Shown in pieces: positions 10,658 to 62,825 of a stretch of DNA of 64,000 nucleotides (position 1 is its first letter; each line of letters starts with the position of its first letter). Source of the DNA: Bdellovibrionales bacterium (lineage in GTDB: Bacteria > Bdellovibrionota > Bdellovibrionia > Bdellovibrionales > JAUICD01). Position numbers and translations under genes: made by a program. The stretch lies in NCBI GenBank assembly GCA_965197425.1, contig CBDANC010000012.1, positions 32,001-96,000 on the forward strand, in the 5' to 3' direction. Under the pieces are notes generated by a model. The model was not told the DNA's origin. It ran no database searches and worked only from the letters and a program-made list of their open reading frames with translations.

Positions 10658-10746
10658 GGATCGGCATCGTATCCAGCGCTGGGCAACCACTCGGCAGAAA
10701 AAAATAGGCAGAGCCTCCTTGTTTTCTGCCTCGTTCGGAAGACCTT
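10658..10746 (-). repeat. Modular hairpin element (one unit)
   Basis: Minus strand AAGGTCTTCCGAACGA-GGCAGAAAA...TTTTCTGCC-GAGTGGTTGCCCAGC...GATGCCGATCC; begins on the last base of the comM TAA. Confidence 0.9.
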
Positions 10747-12155
10747 TAATATATAGGGTTTTGGATTCTATATAGCGTTTCATAAGAAAGTTTATGTGCT
10801 TTATTCAAGAAACTTGCTTTTATTTTTTCATAAGAAGCTATATCCGCAAGTGTTCTAGCTACTTGTAAAATAGATAGTTTTGTTCTGTTCTGCATAGATA
10901 ATTCTGGAAAGTGCATATCGAATTGATTGTCAGTATCTAGCTTTAAAGTTTCAGATGGGGACAATTTTCCATTGGGTATAACTTGCCCCCTTGATTTTAT
11001 AGCAAACATTCTGGCTTTTTGGACAACCTTGTAAATTTCTTTGGATTGAATTTCTTGTGGTTCCTTAAAATTGTCGGAAACATAGATGATATGAAATCTA
11101 TCAAACACCGGACCAGAAATTTTATCTAAATATTTTTGTAACCTATATGAAGAACAAATACATCGTCTTGAATCGTGTGGTAAGTATTTTCCACACCTGC
11201 ATAGGTTTGTAGTTGCTAAAAACAAAAAATTAGCAGGTAGTATTCTCATACCACTAGCCCTTGCAAGATATACTTTGCCTTTTTCCAAAGGCTCCCTCAA
11301 AGATTCTTGCACAGAACTGGAATATTCTAATAACTCGTCTAAAACTAATACACCACCATGAGCTCTGGTTACAGCACCTGGCCCTATTGGAGATCCACCA
11401 CCTATAACAGCAATATGACTACTGGTATGATGAGGTGATTCAATAGGTCTCCAGGTTAAATTTTTTCCAAGCCTTCTCCAAATAGATTTAGATTCAAAAA
11501 AAATGTCTTTGGAGGGGTCTAGCAAAGATCTCGATATGATGTCACAACTAGTGGTTTTGCCAGTACCAGGGGAGCCCACAAATAATGCATTATGCTCTCC
11601 AGTAGCTATTATGCTACATACTTCAAATTGAGTTTTGGATATCAAAAAGGTAGGTAATTCTGGTCTATTAAAACTAAAACCATTAGCTTTAACTTTAATA
11701 TAATTTGGATCTATAATGTCTGATAGTTTTTTAATTTGAAATGAATCAAATCTAAGATTTTTACACATCCCGGTACAAAATAAATGATTTGCCTGTACAT
11801 CATTGATATCGCAAGGTGCTCTAACATCCCCTTTTAACCCAAGTTCTCCATAAAAGGTGTCGGTTTTTAGACTTAATTGCTTTGTTTCAGCTAAAATTCC
11901 TGCAGCTATGGCAAGATCCAGTCCTTGGCTTTTTTTCTTAATGTTATTAGGTTTAATATGTACAAGTATTTGGTGTTTTTTAGGCCAATGAAACCCTTGA
12001 TTTTTTAAAGCAGATTTTATTCTAATACCACTTTCCTTGATGGCGTTGTCTGGAAGACCGATTATTTTTAGATCCGGAAGCCCAGACATAAGACTTACGT
12101 CTATTTCAGCTTTCATTAGTTCAAAGTCATTATCAATAAAAGAATAAACCCGCAT
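10746..12155 (-). CDS. comM: YifB/ComM-family Mg-chelatase-like AAA+ ATPase
   Basis: IIGLPDNAIKES, LDLAIA, GELGLKG, GSPGTGKT, PHHTSS, AHGGVLVLDEL, ISGPVFDRF. Confidence 0.88.
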   Translation of the reverse strand: MRVYSFIDNDFELMKAEIDVSLMSGLPDLKIIGLPDNAIKESGIRIKSALKNQGFHWPKKHQILVHIKPNNIKKKSQGLDLAIAAGILAETKQLSLKTDTFYGELGLKGDVRAPCDINDVQANHLFCTGMCKNLRFDSFQIKKLSDIIDPNYIKVKANGFSFNRPELPTFLISKTQFEVCSIIATGEHNALFVGSPGTGKTTSCDIISRSLLDPSKDIFFESKSIWRRLGKNLTWRPIESPHHTSSHIAVIGGGSPIGPGAVTRAHGGVLVLDELLEYSSSVQESLREPLEKGKVYLARASGMRILPANFLFLATTNLCRCGKYLPHDSRRCICSSYRLQKYLDKISGPVFDRFHIIYVSDNFKEPQEIQSKEIYKVVQKARMFAIKSRGQVIPNGKLSPSETLKLDTDNQFDMHFPELSMQNRTKLSILQVARTLADIASYEKIKASFLNKAHKLSYETLYRIQNPIY

Positions 12156-12182
12156 AGCATTTACCTCACCTCCAGTAAAGTA

Positions 12183-12199
12183 TGCAAATTGTTTGCCAG
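12183..12199 (-). promoter_or_regulatory. Putative sigma-54 promoter of comM
   Basis: Minus strand CTGGCAAACAATTTGCA equals TGGCA-N6-TTGCA, about 28 nt upstream of the ATG. Confidence 0.65.
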
Positions 12200-12338
12200 T
12201 TTAAACTGATAAATTTTCACTTTTAAAGTGATTAAGGTGTTTTAAATTTTAAAACACTACTAGCAAGCTAGGGTTTATGATGTTATTTATTAGATGTTGT
12301 GAACTTGCAATGTTTTCAAATAACACTAAGAGACAAAT

Positions 12339-12950
12339 TTGGTATTAGGGAGGCTTAATATCAAATCTGAACTATCTTTAATGATTACTGACTTTATCCT
12401 AGCTACTTTTACTTTTATCTGGTGCTTTAGGCTTTTCAGAATGATTGTAGCAGGGAAGCACAATCTTTATCCTTACTGCATTGTATTATTTTGTATAAGC
12501 CAGGCGGCATTTTTGGCTGGCGTATATCATGGATATGTAGAGTTTATGCCAGAAATTGCACAATTATTTCTTTGGAGATTGGTTTTAGGTTTTATTGGAG
12601 TTGCTGGGCTTTTTCTTTTGTATATTTTAGTTGAAAAACAAAGCCGTAATTTCAAAGCTTTTGTACATACTGTTTTTGGCATTGTCTATTTTGGAACTGC
12701 TTTTTACACACAAGAATTTATGTTTAGCATGGCCGCTTACTTATCGATTGTAGTTGTAGTTTTTGTAACATCTATGAGAAAATCGGGATTCAAATATATG
12801 ATGCTGTTTTCTCTTTTAACTATTATTGCTGCAGGTTTGCAATTATCTAACTTTAAACTACATGAGTTTTTTACCAGTGATGATATGTATCATCTCGTTC
12901 AAACTGTTGGGTGTTATTACTTTTATAAACATGCCAGAGTAAATGCATAA
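12339..12950 (+). CDS. Multi-pass membrane protein (7-TM-like, unknown function)
   Basis: ITDFILA...AGVYHG...DDMYHLVQ in a hydrophobic protein. Confidence 0.7.
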   Translation: MVLGRLNIKSELSLMITDFILATFTFIWCFRLFRMIVAGKHNLYPYCIVLFCISQAAFLAGVYHGYVEFMPEIAQLFLWRLVLGFIGVAGLFLLYILVEKQSRNFKAFVHTVFGIVYFGTAFYTQEFMFSMAAYLSIVVVVFVTSMRKSGFKYMMLFSLLTIIAAGLQLSNFKLHEFFTSDDMYHLVQTVGCYYFYKHARVNA

Positions 12951-12965
12951 GTTGGCAGGTGGTGT

Positions 12966-14594: not shown

Positions 14595-14764
14595 AACTCT
14601 AGGCTTTTACAAATCAGCTAAAAATATTTGACACGCTAAGACTTAAACTACTTTATAGTTTTTTATATAATTCGAAGGCTGTATTGAGTTTTTTTAATTT
14701 GTTCTTATTTGAGCTTTGTTGTAGAAGGACAGTTTTGAAGAAATAAAATAAATAGGAAAAACAT

Positions 14765-16147
14765 ATGTTGGAAGCAATTGATCAATTTTTAGCTACTGCC
14801 GTAGGTTATGTTTGGAACATACCTCTAGTGGTAGTTTTGATAGGCTCTGGGCTTTTATTTACTTTTTTGCTAAAAGGTGTTCAGTTTACTGCATTTCGAC
14901 ATGCTATTGATATTGTAAGAGGTAAGTTTGATAAAAAATCTGATCCTGGAGAAATAACACACTTTAAAGCATTAACTACTGCACTGTCTGCCACAATTGG
15001 TTTAGGTAATATAGCTGGTGTTGCAGTGGCTATAAACATGGGTGGGCCTGGTGCTTGTTTTTGGATGATGGTAGCTGGCCTGGTTGGTATGGTCACCAAA
15101 TTTTGTGAATGTTCTCTTGCCGTTAAATATAGAAAAGTAGATTCCAACGGCAAGGTTAGGGGTGGCCCTATGTACTATATTCAGATGGGTCTTGGGGATA
15201 AATTTAAACCTCTGGCAATTTTCTTTGCCTTAGCTTGCATGATTGCAACTTTTGGTGCGGGTAACATGTTTCAGACCAATCAAGTTGCAAAGGTTTTGAA
15301 TAGTTACTTTGATATTCCGGTTATATTGACTGGACTTGTCTTAGCCACCGCAACTGGTCTAGTGATTATTGGTGGTATTAAGCGAATAAGTAATGTTACA
15401 GGCTTCTTGGTTCCTTTTATGGGAATTATATATATGGGTGGATCATTATTAATTATTGGTCTTAATGCCTCAGAAATCCCAACTGTGGTAGGCATGATTT
15501 TTGAGGGAGCATTTAGTGGCACTGCTGCTGCAGGTGGCTTTGCTGGTGTTGCTGTAGCTGAGGTTTTAAAACAGGGTGTAAGAAGAGCCTGTTTTTCAAA
15601 TGAAGCCGGGCTTGGTTCTGCCCCAATTGCTCATGCTGCTGCTAGCACAAAAGAACCTATAAGAGAAGGTATCGTAGCTACAATAGGCCCGTTTGTAGAT
15701 ACCGTTGTAATTTGCATGATGACTGCTTCTGTTATACTTCTTTCTGGTGCTTGGCCAGCAGATGCCGGAATTGATGGAGTTGAGCTCACAGCAATGGCAT
15801 TTGACATGTCACTTCCTGGATTTGGAAAATTCTTTGTTCCTATTGCAGTAACTTTGTTTGGGTACTCCACATTGATAAGTTGGGCTTATTATGGGGAAAT
15901 GGCTACAGACTATTTATTTAAAGAAAACAAAACTGTCATGATGATTTATAAATTAGTCTTTTGCATTTTTGCATTTACAGGTGCACTTTGGGCTTTGGGT
16001 CCTGTTCTAAACTTTTCTGATATAATGTTAGGCCTCATGGTTGTACCTAACATAATAGGGGTATGGTTATTATTTCCTAAAATTAAAGCTGAAACTAAAA
16101 GTTACTTTGATAGACTTAAAAAAGGTGAATTCGATAAACCAAACTAA
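14765..16147 (+). CDS. Alanine/glycine:cation symporter (AGCS family)
   Basis: ATIGLGNIAGVAVAINMGGPGA, GGPMYYI, FSNEAGLGSAPIAH. Confidence 0.95.
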   Translation: MLEAIDQFLATAVGYVWNIPLVVVLIGSGLLFTFLLKGVQFTAFRHAIDIVRGKFDKKSDPGEITHFKALTTALSATIGLGNIAGVAVAINMGGPGACFWMMVAGLVGMVTKFCECSLAVKYRKVDSNGKVRGGPMYYIQMGLGDKFKPLAIFFALACMIATFGAGNMFQTNQVAKVLNSYFDIPVILTGLVLATATGLVIIGGIKRISNVTGFLVPFMGIIYMGGSLLIIGLNASEIPTVVGMIFEGAFSGTAAAGGFAGVAVAEVLKQGVRRACFSNEAGLGSAPIAHAAASTKEPIREGIVATIGPFVDTVVICMMTASVILLSGAWPADAGIDGVELTAMAFDMSLPGFGKFFVPIAVTLFGYSTLISWAYYGEMATDYLFKENKTVMMIYKLVFCIFAFTGALWALGPVLNFSDIMLGLMVVPNIIGVWLLFPKIKAETKSYFDRLKKGEFDKPN

Positions 16148-16384
16148 TTTGGTAAGCTTGTCACCGAATAATTGGCTTCATTAGGAAGATCTTATAGCAC
16201 CGGGATCAGCATCGTGTTCAACGCTAGGCAACCACTCGGATAAAAACTAACTGGAGTTGTATTAAACCTACAAAGTTGGGCAACCCGCTAGGCCAAAAGG
16301 CAAACAAGTTCACCTTATTGTCCTAGCTTAGAAGACCCTGATGTGAACAAGTCCACTTGTTTTCATCCTCGTTAGGAAGACCTT
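16148..16384 (-). repeat. Modular hairpin elements: a nested pair (outer 16202-16384, inner about 16271-16339) plus a partial unit
   Basis: Two AAGGTCTTC/AGGGTCTTC starts and two GGTTGCC(C/T)A ends, one inside the other. A further AAGATCTTCCTAATGA start follows. Confidence 0.9.
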
Positions 16385-16393
16385 AAGTTTACT

Positions 16394-16711
16394 TTAGTTT
16401 AAATGCTTTGCTACACACTCTTTTATTTTATCATAAGAGATATTGCCTACTAGATTTTCTAATGCCTCACCTTTTTTGAATAAGATTAGTGTTGGAATAC
16501 TTTTAACTCCATATTTAGCAGGGCTATCAGGATTATCATCAATATTCATTTTTTGTACCAAAAGCTTTGGAAACTCAGATGCTATTTGTTCTATCTTTGG
16601 CAGAAGTGCTTTACACGGTCTGCACCAAGATGCCCAGAAATCCACTAAAACACAATCAGACTGTAAGATAACCGATTCAAAATTTGAGTCCTTAACTTCT
16701 GCAATTGCCAT
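16394..16711 (-). CDS. trxA: Thioredoxin
   Basis: VLVDFWASWCRPC, YGVKSIPTL; GGAGG RBS before the ATG at 16711. Confidence 0.93.
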   Translation of the reverse strand: MAIAEVKDSNFESVILQSDCVLVDFWASWCRPCKALLPKIEQIASEFPKLLVQKMNIDDNPDSPAKYGVKSIPTLILFKKGEALENLVGNISYDKIKECVAKHLN

Positions 16712-16760
16712 TTCTTCCTCCAATAAATTATGTATGTTAATTAAGTCGTATCATGCCTTG

Positions 16761-16790
16761 CAAAGCTGGGCAACACTGAGCCTAAAGATG
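16761..16790 (-). repeat. Truncated hairpin-element end
   Basis: CAAAGCTGGGCAACACTGAG matches 54168-54187. Confidence 0.75.
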
Positions 16791-16796
16791 CAAAAA

Positions 16797-17645: not shown

Positions 17646-17654
17646 AATGGTTTC

Positions 17655-19160: not shown

Positions 19161-19178
19161 TTTAACCTCCTTAAAATG

Positions 19179-19463
19179 CTAATAATCAGGCCCCTCAGGC
19201 CCCCATGTGTTACAAGACTCGGTATTGAATACCAGAGGCGATGACTCTAATACAGATTTAAATAAAAATCGTATATCAGACCATGCTTCTTTTTTAATCA
19301 TATCTATGGGTACTCTTACTACAAATCTTCCCTTTGTAAATAGCAAAATATTATTATCCACCATAATTTCTAAATTATAATCCTTAAGATTCAGGCTATC
19401 TATCACCCTCTGGGCCATTTCAACCTGAATATCGTTTAATTTTTTGTCTACTACTATGCCCAT
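19179..19463 (-). CDS. Hypothetical protein
   Basis: 94-aa ORF co-oriented upstream of sod. Confidence 0.6.
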   Translation of the reverse strand: MGIVVDKKLNDIQVEMAQRVIDSLNLKDYNLEIMVDNNILLFTKGRFVVRVPIDMIKKEAWSDIRFLFKSVLESSPLVFNTESCNTWGPEGPDY

Positions 19464-19509
19464 AAAACCCTAGATTTGATAACACCTGTAGACCAAATTA
19501 GCAATACCA

Positions 19510-19690
19510 AAGGTCTTCCAACGAGGCCAATAAAGTGAACTTGTTTGCTTTTTGATTGAGGATGAGCCTAATGAGGCAAACAAGGGAAGCTTTGCTTTCC
19601 TTGGTTCAATTGGCTCACGGGATAAACCTTTATATTATCCAATTGAAATAACCTCCCTGACGGTCGGTTTTTGTTTAATGGCTGTTTCAG
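19510..19690 (+). repeat. Modular hairpin elements (two units)
   Basis: AAGGTCTTCCAACGAGGCCAA..., then GATGAGCCTAATGAGGC carrying the CAATTGG...CCAATTG cassette. Confidence 0.88.
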
Positions 19691-19760
19691 CTAAGGCATT
19701 GCCCTTTTAAGCTTTCTAGCGTACAATTCGTCTTATAAAAGAACATAAAAAAGGCTACTT

Positions 19761-19931
19761 ATGAAAATACTAGATTTTTTGTTTGGCAAAAAACCCAAAA
19801 TAACCTTTAAACCTGACGGCACAGTTGTACACAAACATAAAAAGGAATATTGGGAAAAATGGAACAACAGATTTCACACACCAGAATATGACTGGAGAAA
19901 CCACTCTGGTCTTAAGAAAATACCAAAGTAA
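19761..19931 (+). CDS. 56-aa hypothetical protein (missing from the ORF track)
   Basis: MKILDFLFGKKPKITFKPDGTVVHKHKKEYWEKWNNRFHTPEYDWRNHSGLKKIPK; AAGG RBS; sits between repeat loci. Confidence 0.7.
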   Translation: MKILDFLFGKKPKITFKPDGTVVHKHKKEYWEKWNNRFHTPEYDWRNHSGLKKIPK

Positions 19932-19937
19932 TACTTA

Positions 19938-20122
19938 AAGGTGAGCCTAATGAGGCTAATAAGATGGATTGGTGAGACATAGCACGAAGTGCAAGTGAAA
20001 CCAAAACATCTTTTAGCCAAATGGCTCTTTCGAAAACAGATCTCCGTAAACCTCATGTTTTGTCGATAAACCAGAGGTAGAAATAATATCATGTTTCCCG
20101 CGTCTTTCTCACGACCGATCCC
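19938..20122 (+). repeat. Modular hairpin element (GAGCC-type) with an extra tail module
   Basis: AAGGTGAGCCTAATGA-GGCTAA...TTAGCC-AAATGGCTC. The tail TGTTTTGTCGATA...AGAGGTAGAAA is homologous to the reverse complement of about 36510-36590. Confidence 0.85.
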
Positions 20123-20129
20123 GTTTCAC

Positions 20130-20290
20130 AAGGTCTTCCTAACAAGGATAAAAACAAGTGGACTTGTTTACATCAAGGTCTTCTAAGCTAGGACAATAAG
20201 GTGAACTTGTTTGCCTTTTGGCCTAGCGGGTTGCCCAGCTTTGTAGGTTTAATACAACTCCAGTTAGTTTCACTGAATGGTTGCCCAGCT
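20130..20290 (+). repeat. Nested hairpin-element pair; inverted copy of 16244-16384
   Basis: 20130-20270 versus the reverse complement of 16244-16384: 5 mismatches in 141 nt by eye. Confidence 0.92.
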
Positions 20291-21637: not shown

Positions 21638-21884
21638 AAGGTCTTCCTAGCGAGGTCAACAAGATGGATTGGTGAAACACAACACGAAGTGCAAGTGAAA
21701 CCAAAACATCTTTTGACCGAGTGGATGCCCAGTTCAAAGATAAGCCTAACGAGACCAAATAAATGGACTGGTGCAACGAGTGTACAAAGTACAAGTGAAA
21801 CCAGAACATTTTTTGGCCAAGTGGCTCCTTCCCGGTGGACCTCACAGCCAATACCCTACCACTACACATGTCATCAAACTCATC
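21638..21884 (+). repeat. Modular hairpin elements (two tandem units)
   Basis: AAGGTCTTCCTAGCGA-GGTCAA...TTGACC-GAGTGGATGCCCAG, then AAGATAAGCCTAACGAGACC...GGCCAAGTGGCTC. Confidence 0.88.
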
Positions 21885-21901
21885 CCATATGTTATATACT
21901 T

Positions 21902-34190: not shown

Positions 34191-34333
34191 AAGGTCTTCC
34201 TAGCGAGGTCAATAAGGTGGGTTGGCGAAACGATTGCACTTTAGTGCAAGTGAAGCCAAAACATCTTTCAATAAAGGTGGGCGCCTGTTTCACCGAGTGG
34301 TTGCCCAGCTCCACACGTGTCATCAAACTCATC
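34191..34333 (+). repeat. Modular hairpin element abutting the smc start codon
   Basis: AAGGTCTTCCTAGCGAGGTCAA...CCGAGTGGTTGCCCAGC; the tail TGTCATCAAACTCATC is shared with about 21869-21884. Confidence 0.88.
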
Positions 34334-36468: not shown

Positions 36469-36509
36469 GCTTTGCCAGGTTGCCTGAATACCGAGCTACC
36501 TAAAATCTC

Positions 36510-36682
36510 TCAGGAACCACGCTATAAACAAAGTTTGTTTTCTATCTCTAAGGTATCGACAAAACAAAAAATTCTCGGGGGCCGGTTCTCTGCACAACTC
36601 TGATACTGAAAACACCTTTGGCTACATTTGGACTTCGTCTAAGCATTTCGCCAAGGCATTTTCAGCATCAGCGAAGGGCCTT
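36510..36682 (-). repeat. Divergent modular hairpin element with tail module
   Basis: Minus strand AAGGCCCTTCG-CTGATGCTGAAAATGCC...GGTGTTTTCAGTATCAG-AGTTG; starts on the last base of the upstream TAA. Confidence 0.75.
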
Positions 36683-37956
36683 TAATTTGGGATTACAATT
36701 TTTCTTCCAACTAAAATTTTAGCGCTCTTATTTAAAGTGTTAGCTTTGTACAGTTGAGATAATGAAACCTTATATCTTCTAGCAATATGGCTCAGGGTAT
36801 CACCTCTTCTTACAATATGTATCTTTTTGCCACCAGCAGAAGAACCTCTGTAAACTCGCAGTTTTTGACCAGCTTTTATAAAGCCTCTTCTGTTTAGATT
36901 GTTCAAGTTTCTAAGCTCAGACACTTTAGTACCAAACTTAAGAGCTATACCAGATAAAGTATCACCCCTTCTTACCACATAAAGATCGTGTGATCTGGCA
37001 TAAACTTTTTTACTAACATGGCTTTTATCTAAAACTGCAGCAACCTTACTTCTAGTATCAACAGGAACCTTCATATACTGATCATTCCTAGAGAAAGGCA
37101 CATAATCTCTAAGAATACTAGGGTTAAGAGTTTTCAGGGTTTTTAGAGAAATTCCAGAGTGTTTAGCAAGCTTACTTAGACTAATTGATTTTTTTAAATC
37201 CAGTTTTTCATATTGCAAAGGTGGTTCATCCTCTATGTTATAAAAACCATAGCTAGAAGGATTCTTAGCTATTAATCTGGCCGCAAGATACTTAGGAACA
37301 TAGTTCATGGTTTCTCTAGGAAGCTGTTTGTTTTCTACCAAATCCCAAAAATTACGAGTATGATTTCTCATAACCACACGCTTAATCTTATTTTCACCAG
37401 CATTATAAGCAGCCATACTCAAATACCAATCACCAAACAAACTATATAGACTTTTAAAATAATTAGCAGCAGCTATCGTAGCTAACTCAGGATCTCTTCT
37501 CTCATCAACATATACATTGACTTTCAAACCATAAGCACGCCCCGTGCCTCTGACAAACTGCCAATACCCAACAGCAGAAGCTCTACTTCTAGCTTTACTA
37601 CTAAACCCAGATTCTATAAATACAACATAAATAAGATCCTCAGGCAAATTATGCTCTTTCAAAATAGACTTCATCAAACGGGAGTATTTAGGATATCTGG
37701 CCAAGTACATGTTCATGTACTCTCTGCCATCCCCCTGGAAATAATTTAGCCACTTCTGAACCAACTCATTCATATAGTCAGGCACAGGGGTAGAAAACGG
37801 CTCTGAATAATGAGGGCCCCTTAGTTTACTAAAATTACTTTTAGCTACAGCAACAGTACGATCATTAGAAGTAGTTAAACCCCTCTCGTAAATAGAAGCA
37901 CATCCCGTTAAGAACAAAACAATCGGTAAAATTAAAACTCTCATCTGTATCCCCAT
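36682..37956 (-). CDS. MltD-like lytic transglycosylase with LysM domains (lipoprotein)
   Basis: LTGC lipobox, IESGF, GYWQF, AAYNAGE, PRETMNYV and two C-terminal LysM repeats. Confidence 0.92.
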   Translation of the reverse strand: MGIQMRVLILPIVLFLTGCASIYERGLTTSNDRTVAVAKSNFSKLRGPHYSEPFSTPVPDYMNELVQKWLNYFQGDGREYMNMYLARYPKYSRLMKSILKEHNLPEDLIYVVFIESGFSSKARSRASAVGYWQFVRGTGRAYGLKVNVYVDERRDPELATIAAANYFKSLYSLFGDWYLSMAAYNAGENKIKRVVMRNHTRNFWDLVENKQLPRETMNYVPKYLAARLIAKNPSSYGFYNIEDEPPLQYEKLDLKKSISLSKLAKHSGISLKTLKTLNPSILRDYVPFSRNDQYMKVPVDTRSKVAAVLDKSHVSKKVYARSHDLYVVRRGDTLSGIALKFGTKVSELRNLNNLNRRGFIKAGQKLRVYRGSSAGGKKIHIVRRGDTLSHIARRYKVSLSQLYKANTLNKSAKILVGRKIVIPN

Positions 37957-40342: not shown

Positions 40343-41062
40343 ATGATATCATTGGTAATACCAGCATATAACGAAGAAAAAAGGCTTCCTAAATCAATAC
40401 AAGATTTTAAAAGTTTTTTTGCAAAATTAAATCTAGAAATAGAAATTATTATTATTATAGAAAAATCAAAAGATAACACTGTACAAATAGCAAAAAAACT
40501 TACCAATAATTGTAAGATGTTCAAAATCATAGCAAACGATGTACAGCTAGGACCTGGATATGCGATTAAAATGGGGGTAGATGCTGCCCAAGGTGAGTAT
40601 ATATTTGTAACCGATGCAGATATCCCTATCCCTCTTACTTATGTCTTAAAATTTTTGGAACATCTAAACTCAAACAAGGATATTGACATACTATTAGGTA
40701 ACAGGGCAATGGGCAAAACCAATACCAAAAACCCTTTTATAAGAAAGTGTGCAAGTAAAGTATTTAATATTTTGGTAAGAAATATAACTGGAATTACGGC
40801 GACTGATACTCAGTGTGCATTCAAAGCTTTTAGAAATAAAGCAGCTAAGAAAATTTTTGCACACATCAGATCCCATAATGCAGCGTTTTGTGTAGAAGCT
40901 TTAATGCTGGCTAAAAAATTTAACCTTAAATACGAAGAAGCGCCGGTTACATGGACACATAGTGGAGGTGGGTACATAAACCACATAAATATAATTTACC
41001 ACTCGACATCTATATTTACCTCAGTGATTAAGTCTTTTTTTAGGGTAAAGCTTTTAAAGTGA
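40343..41062 (+). CDS. Family 2 glycosyltransferase (polyprenol-phosphate glycosyltransferase-like)
   Basis: ISLVIPAYNEEKRL, TDAD, DTQCAFKAF. Confidence 0.9.
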   Translation: MISLVIPAYNEEKRLPKSIQDFKSFFAKLNLEIEIIIIIEKSKDNTVQIAKKLTNNCKMFKIIANDVQLGPGYAIKMGVDAAQGEYIFVTDADIPIPLTYVLKFLEHLNSNKDIDILLGNRAMGKTNTKNPFIRKCASKVFNILVRNITGITATDTQCAFKAFRNKAAKKIFAHIRSHNAAFCVEALMLAKKFNLKYEEAPVTWTHSGGGYINHINIIYHSTSIFTSVIKSFFRVKLLK

Positions 41063-42277
41063 TTTACAGATATCAGGAGAGTCTGGGTTTAAAACTGGAT
41101 CTCCACAAGTATCCTCGCACATCCAGCATTGTGACTTGGGTTTATCTGCTAACTTTTGGTTGCAAGTCCTAGCAGGCCTATAGCATGTAGTTGTTCCACA
41201 AAATGTTTTTTGAGCAGCAACACAGGTTGGCATTGCTGTGCTTGGGTAGCTTTTGGCATCACCTACAGATCCATTGTCTATGCCACAGGTGATTGTTTTA
41301 TTTGTAGGAAAGCCACAGACCGTTTTACATTCTGTGCAACTGTTCTCACTTCTCCTCTGTTCGCAAGTAAGACCTCCACCACCGTAACAAGTGACACCAC
41401 AAAGTGTTTTTTGTGATGTAGGGCAAGTTGGTTTGTTTGATTCATCATATTTGTACTGATACATAGCACCACTGCCACAAGTAATTGAGACAGCCCTAGG
41501 CTCCTCTGTGCAGCTATTAGGATCATCACAAACTTTACAAGTATCCCCAACCTTCTTTGCTTCGCAAGTTGTAGCCCCATTACAAACTCCGTTGTTACAT
41601 ATGTTACAATCACCGCTACAAGAGATGTTGTGATCTTCACATTGTTTAGTAGTGGTATTACAAACCTGACAACCTAGGCATGTTGGGCATTCGGTGTTCT
41701 TACAAACACCACCTACACAGCTCTGAGCAGGAGGACAAGTTCGATCCCTCGGCATTTCAGTTAAACTATTAGGATTATCACATACTTTACAACTATCCCC
41801 ACCTCTTTTTGTATCACAAGTTACACCTTCAGTATTGTCTGTGGTAGTGGTTGTTTCAGTTGTTTCGGTTACACATCTTTCTATAGATACATTGTGATCG
41901 TCTATCTGTTCTTTTTCATCAATTAATTGAAATGTTCTGATGGAAAGTTCATAAAAATCATTAGTTAGGTTAGTAAATACAATATTATCTACTGAGATTA
42001 AGGTGTTTGCACCATCATTATCTAGTGCAATTTCATCACAACTCAAAAAATCTGTATCTATTATAGGTTCAATTCTTTTGCACTTAAGCAAAATATTATC
42101 AACAGCTACAGGATCAATTTTGAGTGTAACAGTATTATCATCACCTATACATTTGGGTGTAAATTCAAATAATGAGAAAGAAGATGGATCTCTGCTAAAT
42201 TGTTGGGTATTGCAGTTTCGATAGCCAAATAAAATTGAGGCAAGTAAAGCACACAATAAAACTATAGACCTGAGCAT
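41054..42277 (-). CDS. Cys-rich putative lipoprotein (YRNC signal)
   Basis: MLRSIVLLCALLASILFGYRNC; N-terminal domain shared with 51536 and 51994; Thr linker; Cys modules. Confidence 0.85.
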   Translation of the reverse strand: MLRSIVLLCALLASILFGYRNCNTQQFSRDPSSFSLFEFTPKCIGDDNTVTLKIDPVAVDNILLKCKRIEPIIDTDFLSCDEIALDNDGANTLISVDNIVFTNLTNDFYELSIRTFQLIDEKEQIDDHNVSIERCVTETTETTTTTDNTEGVTCDTKRGGDSCKVCDNPNSLTEMPRDRTCPPAQSCVGGVCKNTECPTCLGCQVCNTTTKQCEDHNISCSGDCNICNNGVCNGATTCEAKKVGDTCKVCDDPNSCTEEPRAVSITCGSGAMYQYKYDESNKPTCPTSQKTLCGVTCYGGGGLTCEQRRSENSCTECKTVCGFPTNKTITCGIDNGSVGDAKSYPSTAMPTCVAAQKTFCGTTTCYRPARTCNQKLADKPKSQCWMCEDTCGDPVLNPDSPDICKSL

Positions 42278-42430
42278 ATTATCCCTTCGTGAAATATCAA
42301 GTGAAATACTAAGCGCAACACTAACACCCAACAGAGACCATTACAAGTATCAACAACCAGGCACTGTTCTCACATCGAGGCACTTTTAGCACATGAGACT
42401 TTCCTTATCTGATTTAAAGAAATTACATTA

Positions 42431-42815
42431 AAGGTCTTCCAAACTAAGGCAAAAACAAGTGGACTTGTTCACTTTTTTTGACTTAGTGGTTGCCCAGCTC
42501 CGGAACACGATGCCAATCCCGTCACTTAAGGTTTTCCAATGAGGCCGATAAAAGTTGATTGGCGTAGCAGATGTGCAAAGCACGAAGCGAAGCAAAGAAA
42601 CTTTTTTGGCCGAGTGGTTGCCCAGCTTTGGACACTGATGCCGATCCCGTCACTTAAGGTCTTCCGAATGAGGCAAATAAGGGAAGCTTTGCTTTCCTTG
42701 GTTCAATTGGCTTACGGGATAAACCTTTATATTATCCAATTGAAATAACCTCCCTGCGGTCGGTTTTTACCGAATGGCTGTTTCCTGGTGGACCTCACAG
42801 CTAATACTGTCACTA
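42431..42815 (+). repeat. Three tandem modular hairpin elements with different apical cassettes
   Basis: Units are joined by GATGCC(A/G)ATCCCGTCACTT|AAGGT junctions. Confidence 0.92.
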
Positions 42816-42926
42816 TAAACTATTTTACATAACCTTAGGTTATTATTGCAAAATTCATCCATCTATGCTACAAAAGCACTCAAGACAATCAGCTCTACTC
42901 GCTTTACTTAAAAACCAAGAGTTACA

Positions 42927-43042
42927 GGATCGGCATCGTGTTCCAGAGCTGGGCAACCATCAAACTAAAAGATGTCTTGGCTACATTTGGACTTTGTCTT
43001 ACATTTCACCAATCTATCTTTTAGCTTGATTAGGAAGACCTT
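42927..43042 (-). repeat. Modular hairpin element
   Basis: GGATCGGCATCG...GCTGGGCAACC...TAGGAAGACCTT; contains the spurious ATG at 42972. Confidence 0.88.
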
Positions 43043-43055
43043 ATACTTATTTTAT

Positions 43056-46000
43056 ATGTACATGTATTTAAACTTTACTTTTAGCCTAACTAGAAAAATA
43101 GCACCTCTGTTATTTTTTATTCTCTCCTTCACCAGTGGAGTATCCACCACCAGTGGAGTATACACTTCTGCTCATGCTCAACAAGGTCTAGGTGAATTTG
43201 ATACCTTCACAGATCCTAGTACAACTGATCTTAGATTAGCAGAAAATGCAGTATCTTCATGTGAGGTGTTACAGGAAGTTGCTAAAATTGAAGCAAACAG
43301 TCTATCTTCACAAGAATTTTTCAATAAACTACAAAAGACAGATTCTAATGGAAATTTATTAATTGATACTGAAGATTGTACTGAAAGCATACTTCAGTTT
43401 GTATCATCTCTATGTTCCTCTAATTCAAATACCAACAGGTCATTTTGTAACACCCTTGGCTTCAGTGTGGTTACACCACTCGTAGTGGATACTCCACTGG
43501 TGGTGGATACTCCACTCGTAAATATTAGTAATACTGGTGAAGGTGACTACAAATCTTATGGTAGTTCTGCCCTAGAGAGTTTAGATTTAAACAATTCCAA
43601 TGTTCAAGTTCAACATCCTGATAATAATCCCACATTATCTAACGAAGGAAGTTCTACATTTTCTATAGCAGGACTTCTTTTTTCATTTACTCCCATTAAA
43701 AGATTAAAACTAGCAAGAAACCTAACAAGATCAAACTTAGTAACCTCTAGGATAAAGCCTGTTTTAAATGGAGCTATGTTAATACTAGCTACACTAGGCT
43801 TATCTTCATGTAGTGATGTAACAGAGCCTGAGCCAGTCCCAATAGTAGAAACTCCCTGTACTAGAGGAGAATCAGGATATTTTCAGCTAACTGGTGGCAC
43901 TAACAGTGCTGGTGGTACTAACAGTGCTAGTAATTGCATACAGCTCATAGACCCTCCTACAGTTAGTTATCTTGATAGTGAAGGTAATGTTGTTACGAAC
44001 ACAAATGATATCTCAGATCATTCTATAAAAGTAACATTTGAAGAGCCTGTAAGCTTCATTAGTACAAGTGAGCATGGAAATCTAACTTCCGAAAATGTGG
44101 TTAAGATGGTTGATATAAAGTTAGGCAATGTAGATCTTTTAGATGTTGGATTTGTTTTTACTATAGAGGTTTCAAGTGATGAGGCATCTTTCACTCTGAC
44201 TCCGAAAACCACCTATCCTGCTGGAGATTATGTAGTTGGTGTAAGTAACTATGCAAAGAAGGCTGATATATCTAAGATAGCTGCTAGTACTAACAGAGCT
44301 CAGTATCTTAGCAGGGTTAATGATATGTCACAGTCTTTGTCTTCTTTCAATGTACACACCCCCTGCAGTAGAGGAGAGGAAGGTTATTTTGAGCTTCAAA
44401 ACTCAAGTGTTATGACGGATTGTATTAAGCTTACACTTCCTACTATTAGTTATCTTGATGAAGAAGGTAACACTGTAGAAGATACATCTACAATCTCAGA
44501 TCACTCTATAAAAGTAACCTTCGATGGGAGGGTCAGTTATATAGACTCTTCTCGTTATGAAGGTCTAACAGCGGCTTTTGCAAGAAACATGATAGAGTTA
44601 AACATAAACAGTGAGAATTTATTAACTGGTACTTTTAGATTTCAGATAGAAGCTGGAGTTGAAGAAGATGAAAGCTCATTTTTTATCTTAACTCCAATTT
44701 CAAGTTATCCTGCTGGAAGTTACTCAGTAAAAGTAAAAAACTATGTTAGCTCTTCAGATGCTTCAAAGATTGCAAATGCTACTAATACAGAAAACTATCT
44801 TGCACTAATCAACAAGGAATATTCTTCATTTTCAACACCTAATATTAGCACTCTGTGTGAAGAGAATGCTTCTGGATACTTTGAGCTAACAAATGAAAAT
44901 GGTTCGAAGGACTGCATTAGAATTCCTCAAGTGGTGTTTACTTTTACCCCTAGGGGTGGAAGAGAGATGATCGAGTCAAACTTTGACCCGACTTCAGTTA
45001 TAAAGATTTATTTTGATTTAGAGGTAGTGTATTTATCTGACTCCGGTGAGTGGCGAGAGATTACCAAGGAAGATATTTTAGAGATGGTAGAAATTTCTGT
45101 AAAACCTGAATACAGCTCAAGAAAGGTTGATCATGTGAATACGGATGGTGCTATAGGTTTGGACCTAGTATCGGTAAGTCATGTTGGAGGTAAGACTGTT
45201 ATTACCATAGATTCTCCTTATGATCACACACATGAAGATGGAAGGATCTATGGTTTTCATGTCCCTTATAATATTATAGTCACAAACTTTGCTAAAAAAA
45301 CTGATGTATCTAAAGTTGCAAGTAGTAGCTCTATTAACTCTTATTTAGAGGACACCGCAACCTTTTATCAAGGAATACATGGTGGGCTGTATAAGCCAAC
45401 CTCTTGTGATCTAGGATATGCACAATCTGCCGCAAATTATGATCAGTATAATGATGCAGAAGAGTTAGATCACTTTATATGTGAGACTGATAAGATGCTG
45501 GATACATTTTTACCTCCATCAGGAGACATTGCCTTTGATATGGCAATGTTCGATGCAAATAATGATGCTGATATGACTCACTTAGAAAAAACCGATCCTG
45601 GTACAAGGCATGTTATTGATCTTGCGTTTGTTACTTCGGATGTTCTTTTTGAAAATGCTAGTGGTGATTGGCGTACATATTTCGAAGATAAAGTTATTAA
45701 AGGCTTAAACAAGATGTTTCAATACTCCGGGGTGAATGTTGAATTTAGAGTTTCTGTGATTGGCCCTTTTTCTGATTATAGAGGGTATTTGTATTGTGAT
45801 CTCCCTACCATAGAAAACGTAGTTAACCCTCAAACTGGGCTTGGAAGCGAAGCACAAGCTATTTCAGAATTAATTCCGATCATTCGCAAAAAACATCCTG
45901 TTGATATATTTGTTGTAATGGTTCCATATGGTGGAGGATATGCGGTGATAGGTGATGGTCTTAGACACTTCCCTGTTTCAGCTAGATGGAGTTCTTCACT

Positions 46001-51535: not shown

Positions 51536-51949
51536 TTAAGTGCCACATTTTTTCATATCTACTTCATACTCCTGGCCAAACTTTCTTGTACCATCAACTA
51601 ATTGAACTGACCTTATAAAAAACTTATAATGCTCTTTATCTAAATTATTAAACAAAATGCCGCTATCACCAATGGGATAGGTGTTTGAACCATCGTTATC
51701 TAAGGTAATACCACCACAATCCAAAAATTGAGTATCAGCAATAGGGACAGTTCTCTTACACTGAAAAAAAGTATCGTCTAATAATGAAGCCACATTAAGT
51801 GTAACAGCCTTACTATCATCTATACACCCAGGTGTTATCATAAATGGCATAGATGAAGCATGATTCACAGAAGTAATATCAGTAGTACAATTTTGATATG
51901 CAAAAATTGAAACCACTAAACATAAAAAAAATACTACAGGCCTTATCAC
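51536..51949 (-). CDS. Short YQNC lipoprotein paralog (N-terminal domain only)
   Basis: IFAYQNC signal; colinear with the N-terminal domain of 51994..52962. Confidence 0.82.
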   Translation of the reverse strand: MIRPVVFFLCLVVSIFAYQNCTTDITSVNHASSMPFMITPGCIDDSKAVTLNVASLLDDTFFQCKRTVPIADTQFLDCGGITLDNDGSNTYPIGDSGILFNNLDKEHYKFFIRSVQLVDGTRKFGQEYEVDMKKCGT

Positions 51950-51993
51950 AACTGACCCCTTTTTATTTTTTCACAAACACAAATTTGCTAATT

Positions 51994-52962
51994 TTAAAAG
52001 CGTATACACATCTCAGGATCAGCATTAGGTGCAGGTGTAGGTTCACCACAAACACTCTGACATTCCCAACAGTTTGGCATAGCTTGGAGTTGCCTTTTTT
52101 GCTCGCAAGTCTGCTCAGCCCTATAACAAGTAGTAGCACAGAATTGTTTTTCATCAGCAACACACGTAGGCCTACTTGAGCTTGCATAATTTGTAGCATC
52201 ACCAGCAGCACCATTGTCTGCACCACATGTAATAGATTTGTTAGTAGGAACTCCACAAGTAGCTGTACATTCTGTACAAACATTATTGTTTCTTTGTTGC
52301 TCGCAAGTAGGTCCTCCGTCAGCATAACAAGTAATCTCACCATGAGTTTTTTGTGATGTAGGGCAAGTTGGCTGTGAGCTTGAAGGGTGCGGATGTCCCG
52401 ACATAACGCCTTGACCACAAACAACATTAGTAGTGACAGTAGTCCCTGTGGTTGCTGTGGTTACGGTAGTCCCCGTAGTTGCTGTAGTAACAGTAGTTCC
52501 TGTATTACCACCGTCGTTGTTATCATTATTGTTGTCGTTGTCATTAGTTGTAGTACCACATCTTGTTATGATTACTTCGTAATCTTCATCAAATTCCCTA
52601 ATTCCATCAACTAGTTGAACTACCCTTATAAAAAACTGATAATTGTCCTGCTGTAGATTATTAAATAAAACACCACTATTACCAACAAGGTGAACACTCG
52701 AACCATCGTTATCTAAGGTAATGCCACCACAATCCAAAAATTGAGTATCAGCAATAGGGACAGTTCTCTTACACTCCAAAGAAATATAATTTTGCAACGA
52801 TGAGGATACGCTAAGTGCAACAGAATTATCACTGCCTATACATTCGGGTGTTAGTTCAAATGGTACAGAAGCCTGATCTACAGAAGTAATACTAGTAGTA
52901 CAATTTTGATACGCAACAATTGAAGCTGCTAAAGCACAAAAAAATGCTATCGACCTTACCAT
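51994..52962 (-). CDS. Cys-rich putative lipoprotein (YQNC signal)
   Basis: MVRSIAFFCALAASIVAYQNC; Asn/Thr-rich linker; Cys modules colinear with the C-terminus of 41054..42277. Confidence 0.85.
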   Translation of the reverse strand: MVRSIAFFCALAASIVAYQNCTTSITSVDQASVPFELTPECIGSDNSVALSVSSSLQNYISLECKRTVPIADTQFLDCGGITLDNDGSSVHLVGNSGVLFNNLQQDNYQFFIRVVQLVDGIREFDEDYEVIITRCGTTTNDNDNNNDNNDGGNTGTTVTTATTGTTVTTATTGTTVTTNVVCGQGVMSGHPHPSSSQPTCPTSQKTHGEITCYADGGPTCEQQRNNNVCTECTATCGVPTNKSITCGADNGAAGDATNYASSSRPTCVADEKQFCATTCYRAEQTCEQKRQLQAMPNCWECQSVCGEPTPAPNADPEMCIRF

Positions 52963-53303
52963 GGACCACCCCCGTATTGTGTATACTCCTAAGAGTATAC
53001 TTACACCCATCCTCTAACACAACAATTGGTAGAATAAAATATTTCTAAGACTCTATCTCCCAACCTAAAGTCTTGGTTTTTCAGAACTATAAACAACAAT
53101 CTCACTGATCTATCTTGAGCCTAAGTATAACTTAACATGTACACTAGAGTGTGGGTTTATTAAATTTTCAACACCAAAAATATTAAAAATATTAAAGGTA
53201 TTGGCTTAATAGTTGCTCAAGCTCATTAGCTTTTGAGTGTCTTAAATTTCTTGACTTAGTATTTATTATCAATAAGACTGCCTTAGCTTACAATTGAAAG
53301 TAT

Positions 53304-53819: not shown

Positions 53820-53865
53820 ATCTGTGTAGATTATTAAACAAATATAAAATTAAATCAAACACATA

Positions 53866-54265
53866 AAGGTCTTCCGAGCGAGGCCAATAAAGTGAACTTG
53901 TTTGCTTTTTTCAATTGGCTCACGGGATAAATTTTTATATTTTCCAATTGAAATAACCTCCCTGCGGTCGGTTTTTTAATAAAGGTGAGGTTAATGAGGC
54001 CAAAAACAAAGTGACTTTGTTGCTTTTTTTTGGCCGAGTGCCTGTTTCACCGAGTGGTTGGCTTCATGCCCAGTACTGGGCAACCACAAGGCTTTGAAAA
54101 TAGGCAAAGCCTCCTTATTTTTTACCTCGTTCGGAAGACCTTATGGAACGGGATCGGAATCAGTGTCCAAAGCTGGGCAACACTGAGTTTAGAAGATGTC
54201 TTGGTTACACTTGGACTTTGTCCTGCATTACACCAATCCATCTTCTAGACTCATTTGAAGACCTT
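53866..54265. repeat. Four modular hairpin elements: two on + meeting two on - end-to-end
   Basis: Starts with AAGGTCTTCC at 53866, ends GAAGACCTT at 54265; central palindrome TGCCCAGTACTGGGCA at 54067-54082. Confidence 0.9.
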
Positions 54266-54282
54266 GAGTATAATCATAAAAA

Positions 54283-55551: not shown

Positions 55552-55558
55552 GGTGCAG

Positions 55559-55590
55559 GATTGGCTGATTGCCTGATTGTCCGATTTCAA
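55559..55590 (+). repeat. Degenerate 8-mer tandem repeat (GATTGCCT-like, 4 units)
   Basis: gattggct gattgcct gattgtcc gatttcaa. Confidence 0.6.
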
Positions 55591-55596
55591 GTTAAT

Positions 55597-55709
55597 GGAT
55601 CAGCATCTTGTTACAGTGCTGGGCAACTCTGAAACTGAAAGTACCTCGGCCACACTTGTGCTTCGCACAGCATTTCGCCATGGCAACTTTCAGTTCTTGC
55701 TGAGACCTT
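55597..55709 (-). repeat. Modular hairpin element
   Basis: Minus strand AAGGTCTC...AACTGAAAGT...TGTGCGAAGCACA...ACTTTCAGTT...GTTGCCCAGC...GATGCTGATCC. Confidence 0.85.
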
Positions 55710-55714
55710 TAAAT

Positions 55715-56224
55715 CTAGATGCCGCCTTTAATACGATCTTCATCATCTAAGACTGTCTGAACACCACCCTTTAATTGAGGTCTATAAGCTAACTCTTGAA
55801 TACCATTTATAAAACTTGCTCCATTTATCCCAGGAGTTTGCCACTCAGGCCCCATTCTAACAGCATCTACAGGACAAGCTTCTTCACAAAAACCACAAAA
55901 AACGCACCTAAGCATGTCTATTTCATAATTAATAGGATATTTTTCAACTGAAGAGTCAGAATGCTCACTTGCCACAATTGTAATACAGTCCGCAGGGCAG
56001 TTGGTTGCACATAACATACAAGCTGTACACCTCAGGGAACCATCTTTTTTGACAGTTAAAACATGATTACCCTTAAACCTAGGACCATATTGATACTTTT
56101 TTTCAGGATAATTTACAGTCTGCATATCTCCCTTTCTAAATAAATTTTTTATCAGGTTAGATATGGTGATCTTTAATCCCTTTAAAATACCCGGTAAATA
56201 CCAATCTTCTATCTTTCTAGCCAT
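55715..56224 (-). CDS. nuoI: NADH-quinone oxidoreductase subunit I
   Basis: Two CxxCxxCxxxCP motifs: CTACMLCATNCP and CVFCGFCEEACP. Confidence 0.96.
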   Translation of the reverse strand: MARKIEDWYLPGILKGLKITISNLIKNLFRKGDMQTVNYPEKKYQYGPRFKGNHVLTVKKDGSLRCTACMLCATNCPADCITIVASEHSDSSVEKYPINYEIDMLRCVFCGFCEEACPVDAVRMGPEWQTPGINGASFINGIQELAYRPQLKGGVQTVLDDEDRIKGGI

Positions 56225-58959: not shown

Positions 58960-59032
58960 GTCTTATATCTTTATATTTTTGCTTTCTAAAAAAGAAAGTT
59001 TATAACCACATTTTTTTATTTAAGTTAAAAAT

Positions 59033-59506
59033 CTACCTTAACTTTCTTAAAAGATTTTTTGCCTTTTCAAAATTCATTTTATCATAGTATTTTTCGTTAA
59101 TCTGAACCGCTGGGGCATTATCACACGACCCCAAACACTCTACCCTTGTTACTGTAAATCTTCCATCTAGAGTTTTTTCTCCCTCTTTTACTTCAAGCTC
59201 CGAGCATAATTTTTCTGTTAATTCTCTAGCCTGAAACATTGAACAAGTAAGGTTACAGCAAACCTGGATATGATATTTACCCACGGGCTTTTTGTTAAAC
59301 ATAGTATAGAACTCTAATACCTCATTTACATGAGCCTCAGGTATATCCATAAGTTCACTTAAACACTCGACAGCCTCTTGGCTTATCCAACCGTTATTTT
59401 CCTCTTGAACTTTGTAAAGACAAGGAATTATAGCTGAATACTTATCCTCATAACGTTTAAGTTCTGCTTTAACAAATTTTTTTGCTCCTTCCGATAGCTC
59501 AAACAT
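59033..59506 (-). CDS. nuoE: NADH-quinone oxidoreductase subunit E
   Basis: FYTMF, VCCNLTC, ECLGSC. Confidence 0.96.
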   Translation of the reverse strand: MFELSEGAKKFVKAELKRYEDKYSAIIPCLYKVQEENNGWISQEAVECLSELMDIPEAHVNEVLEFYTMFNKKPVGKYHIQVCCNLTCSMFQARELTEKLCSELEVKEGEKTLDGRFTVTRVECLGSCDNAPAVQINEKYYDKMNFEKAKNLLRKLR

Positions 59507-61167: not shown

Positions 61168-61745
61168 TAGTTAGCAACTTTTCTAGGTTTCCAGTTATCT
61201 TTCCAAGGCCTTGGTTGTTTGTTCTCGATCATTTTTTGGATAACCATAACACCATCCAAAACCGCCTCAGGTGTTGGAGGACATCCTGGTACATATACAT
61301 CAACTGGAATAATTTTATCTATACCCTGTAACACATGGTATGCTCTATAAAAACCACCAGAACTTGCACACGCACCCATTGACAAAACATATTTTGGCTC
61401 TAACATTTGTTGATAAATATTTAAAAGCACGGGGGCCATTTTTTCTGTAATAGTACCAGCAACAATCAATAAATCCGACTGACGTGGCGAAAATCTAACA
61501 ACCTCAGCACCAAACCTAGCTAAATCATACTTAGGCCCCATAACACTCATAAGCTCAATACCACAACAGGCCGTACCAAATGGCAGGGGCCAAAGCGAAT
61601 TTTTTCTACCCCAACCAACAATTTTATCCAATTGCGTGGTCATGTAGGAGTCTAAAAAACCATATTTGTTAGCTTCTACATCCGATATTTTAATATCTTG
61701 CTCTTTTGATAGCTTTTTTAGTTTTATATCTTTTGATTTAGCCAT
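61167..61745 (-). CDS. nuoB: NADH-quinone oxidoreductase subunit B
   Basis: [32 protein letters not shown]. Confidence 0.97.
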
Positions 61746-61867
61746 ATCAGTTTACTATACACTCACAAAATAGGGATAACAACCACAAAAACTATCAAGG
61801 GAAACGCAAAATAGCAAACTAATAGCAATTGGATCAGCTGCGAGTTCTATCAGGAACTTGAGTTGCT

Positions 61868-62039
61868 GGATCAGAATCGTGTCCAAAGCTGAACAACCTC
61901 TCAGATAAAAAACCGGCTGCAAAGGAGGTTCATCCAATTGGATAATATAAAGATTTATCCCGTAAGCCAATTGAACCAAAGTGAACAAGTCCACTACGAG
62001 TGGAGTATCCACTTGTTTTAGCCTCGTTTGGAAGACCTT
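61868..62039 (-). repeat. Modular hairpin element carrying an 18-bp micro-insertion
   Basis: GGATCAGAATCGTGTCCAAAGCTG...CCTCGTTTGGAAGACCTT; the CAAGTCCACTTG cassette is interrupted by ACGAGTGGAGTATCCACT. Confidence 0.88.
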
Positions 62040-62045
62040 TAGTTG

Positions 62046-62357
62046 TTATTTTACTTTGTTAATACATGGTGTAGTTCGATAAATTGAGTTTGAGTTTTTA
62101 TACTCATCTTCATCCAAAATTCTTTGTGAAAGTGCATGAAGTCCGTTGGCAAATTCTTCCCTAAGTTCATTCGTCACTTCTCTTTGCCTCTGAACTTTGG
62201 TTTTGCCTAAAAAATAATTACTAACCAAAAGTAGCTTAAAATGAGTACCAGACCCAAGACCATCTCCATGCATGCTACTTTGATCCTCTAGCTCTAACAC
62301 AATTGGATTAAATTTTTTTAATTTTTGTACTATTTTTTTATAAACCGTATCGCTCAT
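62046..62357 (-). CDS. bolA: BolA family protein
   Basis: DQSSMH, THFKL, GLHALS. Confidence 0.9.
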   Translation of the reverse strand: MSDTVYKKIVQKLKKFNPIVLELEDQSSMHGDGLGSGTHFKLLLVSNYFLGKTKVQRQREVTNELREEFANGLHALSQRILDEDEYKNSNSIYRTTPCINKVK

Positions 62358-62412
62358 TTTAAACTTTCAATTATGTTTGATTAACATGATCTAACTTGTA
62401 TGTTACTTGCGA

Positions 62413-62631
62413 TTACTTGTGCCGATACATGATAAGACCATGAGTTGGGTCATAAGGTGAAACTCCAACAGTAACTTTATCTCCAACAACAACTCTGATG
62501 TTGAATCGTCTCATTTTACCACATAATTTAACACTCACCTCTACATCGTTATCCAATTTAACTTTATAAATTCCGCCCACTCCAGCATCCACAACCTTAC
62601 CTTCAATTTGTGCTAAATCATCTCTTGCCAA
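62413..62631 (-). CDS. infA: Translation initiation factor IF-1
   Basis: GKMRRFNIRVVVGDKVTV...SPYD; TTG start with GGAGG RBS. Confidence 0.95.
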   Translation of the reverse strand: MARDDLAQIEGKVVDAGVGGIYKVKLDNDVEVSVKLCGKMRRFNIRVVVGDKVTVGVSPYDPTHGLIMYRHK

Positions 62632-62742
62632 CTAAACCCTCCAAAGAGAAATTTCGAAAATTACTAAAAACTCTGACAAATAAAAACTATACAAAAGTAG
62701 TCTGATAAAACTTTCTCGGTATGTCAAACCTCTTTTTAATTA

Positions 62743-62825
62743 AAGGTGAGCTTAATGATAGCAAAAAGCGAACTTGTTTGCTTTTTGCTGAATGACTCTT
62801 TTCCCGTCACTTAAGGTGAGTCAGT
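62743..62825 (+). repeat. Minimal GAGC-type hairpin element plus the start of another
   Basis: AAGGTGAGCTTAATGA-TAGCAAAAAGC...GCTTTTTGCTG-AATGACTC...CCCGTCACTTAAGGTGAG. Confidence 0.8.

Follow-up and report, generated by a model that had tools for sequence, protein, structure and literature searches.

A Bdellovibrionales bacterium (source genome G000, assembly GCA_965197425.1) carries a dispersed family of modular hairpin elements, which we describe here from a window of 64,000 nucleotides, positions 32,001 to 96,000 of contig C12, and from the genome around it. The family is real, undescribed and restricted to its genus. Its fold, its fixed head, its insertion, the exchange of its modules and its bias towards gene ends are all observed. 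The best reading is a REP/BOX-like, non-autonomous and probably selfish family whose mover was not found. That the units are cut and rejoined as folded single-stranded DNA (ssDNA) by a REP/IS200-like nicking enzyme supplied in trans is the explanation we favor, with a probability of about 0.45; mobilisation in trans is the step that we infer. The source genome is 1.60 Mb in 15 contigs (35% G+C, completeness 99%). A second genome of the same genus (G001, 93% complete, median protein identity 69%) is referred to below as the sister genome.

Anatomy, covariation and distribution

Each unit is 90-125 bases long, carries no gene and follows one order: a short purine tag, an imperfect stem base, an A/T-rich stem, an exchangeable tip, a bottom arm and a tail of 25-35 nt. 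The 5' end is fixed, with its purine tag usually just after a T, and the stem base is T.T-mismatched in both species. The head pattern has 99 matches in the source genome, against 0 for its reversed control, and is therefore not a product of chance. Looser motifs give 181 loci, a count that may contain chance matches, of which 7 lie within open reading frames (ORFs); together these loci cover at least 17 kb. Nearest-neighbor identity between copies has a median of 92%.

The first-pass annotation of the window had proposed a covarying base stem, quoting four stem pairs, all of which are found where it placed them. Covariation is seen at stem positions 1, 3 and 4 and at the pair outside a tandem G.A motif. 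Among 91 parsed units with A or B heads, 88 of them distinct, Watson-Crick pairs occupy these four positions in 77, 71, 76 and 64 units, compared with 60, 49, 30 and 46 in shuffled controls (each p=0.0002, overstated because the copies are related). Pairing reaches 88% in the true register and 13-59% in slid registers. Stem positions 6-8 are too constant to give a signal, and the tandem G.A is kept in 59 of the 88 units.

Modularity is broader than the two chassis types first described: at least six head subtypes share one 5' tag, at least four of them beyond A and B. Head and bottom arm go together: 73 of 80 A-headed units carry one arm, and 9 of 11 B-headed units the complementary other one. 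Cassettes are mixed between chassis, as had been claimed, with five classes on A heads and three of these also on B. Many units are truncated. Units are joined head to tail, orientations are mixed at only 8 loci, and head and tail ends are unrelated, with no terminal inverted repeats.

One proposed apical cassette, a palindromic 7-mer block, turned out to be a separately mobile 66-nt module rather than a cassette alone, and the A and B cassette classes occur with or without it. The module also sits at one position in 5 of the 19 four-helix-bundle loci of the source genome (TIGR02436), with the frame intact in four ORFs and short homologies on its flanks. One of these module-bearing genes also contains a headless piece of another head subtype. 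The four-helix-bundle genes themselves (TIGR02436/PF05635, ~97 aa; for example C14:51409-51702 and C15:352729-353253) have flanking arrays built from 7- and 8-base units and look like a second mobile family.

The source head pattern has no match in the sister genome, where instead a diverged family of like fold occupies 121 loci, with tag register, base and tail position unchanged. There, base positions 2, 4 and 8 are paired in 84, 71 and 64 of 103 distinct units, against 46, 56 and 37 after shuffling, and two T.T mismatches at the base are kept in 91 and 88. A joint alignment of 4 window units and 8 sister units contains 16 pairs, 12 of them changed on both sides; its covariation is 0.65, against 0.29 when shuffled and 0.07-0.17 when slid, for rows that were hand-picked and a structure derived from those same rows. 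Because this alignment covaries, the long cassette is taken as common to both species; short cassettes were seen in the source genome only. The two families lie mostly at different sites: of 102 syntenic source loci only 13 have an element in the sister genome as well, a share nonetheless above the background of 28 in 796 gene pairs.

Beyond these two genomes the family fades. The joint pattern has 37 matches in the source genome and 41 in its sister; the order's remaining genomes, 382 in number, have at most 3 apiece, which is chance level. A scan across GTDB returned 42 loci, 16 in one Bdellovibrionales metagenome-assembled genome record and 26 as single, uninspected matches in unrelated records. 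Plasmids and phages gave 0 matches, the metagenome scan 0, and viral contigs 29 single matches with the hairpin in none. At the gathering score, Rfam 15 found nothing but tRNAs in the window, and over 42300-43100 its best E was 1.4; literature searches, supplements aside, gave no description of the repeat. The first impression of an unrecognised family was borne out in Rfam, plasmids, phages and viral contigs.

Insertion, gene ends and loops

Evidence for movement comes from one filled and empty pair, from the 66-nt module lodged in four-helix-bundle genes and from strain differences. The unit at 42926-43042 (minus strand) is absent from a paralogous site on another contig of the source genome (C6:46531-46534), whose flanks are 74-83% identical. 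This comparison, of the kind the first-pass annotation had called for, shows a clean insertion of 124-126 nt with no terminal repeats, little homology and no clear duplication (0-1 nt at most). Insertion rules drawn in this way come from few empty sites. At a nested locus, the stretches 15925-16219 and 16355-16513 are matched by a contig from sequencing run X2 in which 42 letters replace the 135 between them, and joints from run X4 are compatible with a simple unit at this place, a reading that is itself inferred. From these contigs, one of low depth from each of two studies, the nested unit 16220-16354 differs in place between related strains. Together with covariation and cassette mixing, the empty site and strain differences support the early description of a structured, modular, non-autonomous and recently changing family.

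The elements favor gene ends. In 115 of the 159 outer heads a T stands one base ahead of the tag, in another 6 it immediately precedes the tag, and 38 have neither. Of the heads in TAA register, 13 of 69 in the source genome and 14 of 65 in its sister fall on a stop codon, against a background of 3.8-3.9% for intergenic TAA. In the source genome, 9 of these 69 heads also overlap an opposite-strand start codon, against a background of 1.3%. This enrichment may reflect selection rather than aiming, since the element itself brings the AA. An A-head variant with four pairs to the 16S end (anti-Shine-Dalgarno) makes up 9 of 11 start-abutting heads and 20 of 69 others (p=0.0013, in a post hoc test on predicted starts). 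Orientation within co-directional gene pairs shows no consistent preference, with 27 sense and 36 antisense units in the source genome and 23 and 15 in its sister.

The loops bear on whether the working fold is DNA or RNA. The GNA-type triloops of the first-pass annotation were partly confirmed: purine-N-A triloops are present, though the strand that bears them varies with the cassette. In the source genome, 15 of 45 called units have the triloop on the head strand and 30 on the opposite one, with 26 of 71 units not called. Among called sister units, 61 of 64 have a purine-N-A apical loop (39 of 103 not called). Both sides of a 3x3 internal loop read G-N-A, with N free, in 53 of 55 sister units and 10 of 11 source units, the first G being fixed by the search. 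Such a paired GNA/GNA loop is a DNA zipper motif. Among C-G-closed triloops, GNA or its complement accounts for 33% near elements in the source genome and 57% in its sister, compared with 10% and 11% elsewhere. GNA mini-hairpins are described as highly stable when made of DNA and far less so when made of RNA (PMC13037366). The retained tandem T.T and G.A, the GNA/GNA loops and the purine-N-A triloops point to folded ssDNA, and the DNA-hairpin reading first offered for these loops fits them. Ribozyme-like readings (hammerhead, hepatitis delta virus-like and twister) were set aside by eye, as their cores are not constant in the units.

The mover and competing explanations

In the reading we favor, an enzyme acting in trans would read the tag and stem base; it might since have been lost, reside on a passing mobile element or belong to an unrecognised family. 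REP recognition is described as depending on a 5' tetranucleotide and a mismatched stem (PMC8266576). The enzyme would ignore the tip, leaving tips free to vary. Recombination among the many copies, with microhomology-guided insertion of sub-modules, would swap cassettes in place. Selection would then keep gene-end insertions, because the head would restore a stop on one strand and offer a ribosome-binding site on the other.

The first-pass annotation had looked to an HUH or GIY-YIG partner, and neither turned up. Neither genome has a Y1 transposase (PF01797; control positive), and GIY-YIG matches above cut-off in both are UvrC only, with no standalone or Ssn-type gene. Reverse transcriptase, IS110, TnpB, IS630 and GxxExxY were likewise absent from both, with positive controls. 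Tyrosine recombinases (PF00589) are missing from both, XerC and XerD included; three relatives in the same family have 2-7 matches. A simple HUH-motif scan of ORFs of 80-330 aa returned nothing. The search for IS91-type Y2 enzymes gave 0 in the two genomes, its control being silent too. ORFs between neighboring element loci encode core or secreted proteins by eye, and no nuclease stood out. These searches covered chosen families rather than full proteomes, and both genomes may be incomplete.

Several candidates were considered and rejected. Rpn nucleases number 1 in the source genome and 16 in its sister, but also 16 and 19 in two genomes that lack the pattern (G002 and G004), and they are not element-flanked. 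A small HNH gene common to both species is not directly flanked by elements in the source genome and is a weak lead. So is a serine resolvase beside dcd (L185:1870-2589 and L072:15237-15929), single in both genomes and without direct element flanks in the source. Four-helix-bundle genes cannot be a shared mover, with 19 loci in the source genome and none in its sister. DUF559 has one weak match, within a 1,408-aa ORF of the sister genome. A separate observation is a transposase-like ORF of 548 aa at C11:5853-7499 of the source genome, presumably IS1634-like and DDE-like, whose flanks are unlike the element by eye.

Several observations weigh against the trans-acting enzyme. The mover families searched for were not found in either genome, and the preceding T is missing from 38 of the 159 heads. 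DNA-type motifs occur on both strands, against a single working strand. Only a single clean empty site for a whole unit came to light, and headless pieces insert with microhomologies, a route that needs no tag. In 7 of 88 units the G.A has been converted to Watson-Crick, and template switching within a hairpin can create covariation without selection. Replication-strand bias is not consistent: 71 lagging and 48 leading units in the source genome (p=0.04), 35 and 43 in its sister (p=0.43).

Some of these points serve a tentative alternative that we find rather doubtful, in which no dedicated enzyme exists. Stable single-stranded hairpin fragments would be captured by host repair, natural transformation or template switching during replication at short microhomologies, and gene conversion would homogenise them. 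The missing mover fits this account, as do the 66-nt module and headless piece lying between short homologies in the four-helix-bundle genes, the many truncated units, the free mixing of cassettes and the exchange in place between strains; the window also holds a comM-like gene. Host capture does less well with the sharing of a single sharp 5' end by at least six subtypes and by two species, or with mismatches kept while adjacent pairs change, both of which suggest specific recognition. The sole whole-unit empty site, with its little homology, argues the same way.

A bolder reading of the same elements is a new class of ssDNA element, moved by an enzyme that reads hairpin shape only, is unrecognised and is possibly host-encoded. 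This enzyme would aim at start and stop codons, and the elements would supply stops and ribosome-binding sites, even within rpoB-rpoC and the ribosomal-protein cluster. We consider it unlikely.

Also unlikely is that the elements act or move as RNA, as retro-copied or regulatory hairpins that reach gene ends via transcripts. The enrichment of heads on stops and starts speaks for such a route, and G.T wobbles outnumber A.C at some head-strand pairs (17 vs 5). However, reverse transcriptase and an Rfam match are both absent, the loops are triloops and not RNA tetraloops, orientation in co-directional pairs shows no preference and no terminator was called at 42300-43150. No RNA run is among the listed sequencing runs that contain the element.

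We think it improbable that the units descend from integron attC-like single-strand sites that an integrase, since lost, had spread. A long imperfect hairpin with a free tip, a place just after stops and head-to-tail arrays recall attC, and the heads may share a partial likeness with attC end boxes, one that fails in the sister heads; but both genomes are without any tyrosine recombinase, and the elements lie between core genes in both orientations with no cassette arrays. An ordinary family of MITEs (miniature transposable elements with inverted repeats) moved by a DDE transposase is already largely refuted: some loci do have back-to-back units with heads outward, and the C11 ORF is DDE-like, but single units lack terminal inverted repeats, most loci are unidirectional (8 mixed), the empty site has no clear duplication, IS630 and IS110 are absent and the C11 flanks are unlike the element.

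Units in the window and relation to known repeats

By eye, ~25-28 units, some whole and some partial, can be counted at 14-15 loci of the window, in agreement with the ~25 units at 14 intergenic loci first reported. Motif searches list 13 loci, with 11 matches to the first head motif (at most one mismatch), 2 to the second head, 6 to the bottom arm and 9 to the tail. A whole A-type unit, called from motifs and reading of the sequence, lies at 10650-10746 (minus strand) with head, stem, short triloop cassette, bottom arm and tail; the comM-like ORF at 10746-12155 has its stop codon within the overlap with this head. At 16176-16384 (minus) an A-type unit holds the second unit nested at 16220-16354, which two related strains lack, and is followed by a truncated head; a nested composite at 20130-20289 (plus) resembles it. 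Only a bottom arm and the start of a tail remain at 16758-16786 (minus, repeat family D19). On the plus strand, 19506-19690 comprises a truncated A unit and then a B-like unit with the 66-nt module (~19601-19667), and 19938-20031 is a B-type unit, its purine head tag at 19938-19941, with the long cassette (GNA/GNA loop and triloop) common to the sister genome. Between these two loci, a 56-codon ORF at 19761-19931 resembles a cassette. Two further units with the long cassette lie head to tail, plus tails, at 21638-21885 (plus).

Gene ends are again visible at two loci. The head of the unit at 34191-34325 (plus) abuts the smc start codon (34189, minus strand), and its reverse strand gives a purine run 8 nt upstream of that start. 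A unit of a further head subtype at 55596-55712 (minus) has its head at the stop of a NuoI-like ORF ending at 55715. A further head subtype is also seen at 36470-36684 (minus), in a unit with an extra downstream module that includes repeat family D16. Arrays are found at 42431-42820 (plus), where three head-to-tail units all have different cassettes and the third carries the 66-nt module (~42698-42763), and at 53866-54271, where two arrays face each other (53866-54075, plus; 54060-54271, minus) with the module at ~53906-53971. The remaining units are an A-type at 61860-62039 (minus), whose cassette has an extra insert and the module (~61914-61979), and a B-type followed by a truncated head at 62743-62825 (plus).

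ORFs of the window encode housekeeping and secreted proteins, among them paralogous secreted-protein ORFs at 51536-53010 and 41054-42331, partly duplicated with a tandem spacing of 1,013 nt and without a Pfam match. Elsewhere in the source genome, another hairpin repeat family (C15:87360-87578, C14:348269-348411 and C12:155092-155269, and also the leader of a giant pilin-like ORF) is unrelated to the tagged heads. Contigs C2, C3, C5 and C8 consist of tandem repeats with hardly any ORFs, C9 has an ORF resembling a eukaryotic transposase and C10 has a phage-like look; these six are possibly binning contamination. The sister genome has 16 Rpn paralogues (PF04754; for example L073-L090), four of which elements interrupt or abut, a lipoprotein-like family of 21 members and two CRISPR-like arrays with repeats of 36 nt.

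Judged by their defining features, the elements do not qualify as REP/RAYT, NTS/Ssn, MITE or attC sequences, and their workings are like those of REP, BOX and RPE. With REP/BIME-RAYT and IS200/IS605 systems, as described in PMC8266576 and PMC3733652, they share many intergenic copies, a tag 5' of an imperfect, mismatched hairpin, arrays and a lack of terminal repeats. They differ in their tag (not GTAG), in units 3-4x longer, in exchangeable tips, in arrays that run head to tail where those of REP alternate and in having no RAYT in either genome. BOX elements of S. pneumoniae are likewise modular, folded, high in copy number and variable in place between strains, and often provide a gene with its stop codon (36 cases); their terminal repeats are likened to those of ISSpn2, and boxB expands in tandem (all as given in PMC3049150). 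Here, in contrast, tips undergo replacement or nesting, the ends do not form inverted repeats and the loops belong to the DNA mini-hairpin type. RPE of Rickettsia, in the account of PMC2229807, are also long hairpins (~100-150 nt) with in-frame gene insertion and no identified mover, but RPE ends pair as terminal inverted repeats and those of this family do not; in-frame insertion here is limited to the 66-nt module and one accessory gene family. NTS/dRS3 repeats, CGTC-tagged and served by the GIY-YIG enzyme Ssn, are described as oriented single-strand hairpins that can be recognised without their loop (PMC11893778). This family resembles them in that respect, but has another tag, is much longer and has no standalone GIY-YIG gene in either genome.

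The family is interesting mainly because its mover is missing. The spread of REP-, BOX- and RPE-like repeats in the absence of a visible transposase calls for an explanation, and two 1.6-Mb sister genomes without the usual movers narrow the enzyme search to ~1,050 shared proteins. One fold with differing sequences also provides natural variants that mark the recognised features. If a shape-reading enzyme for single-strand insertion does exist, it would be a useful tool; if host repair alone suffices, the family would be a clear case of selfish DNA without an enzyme of its own.

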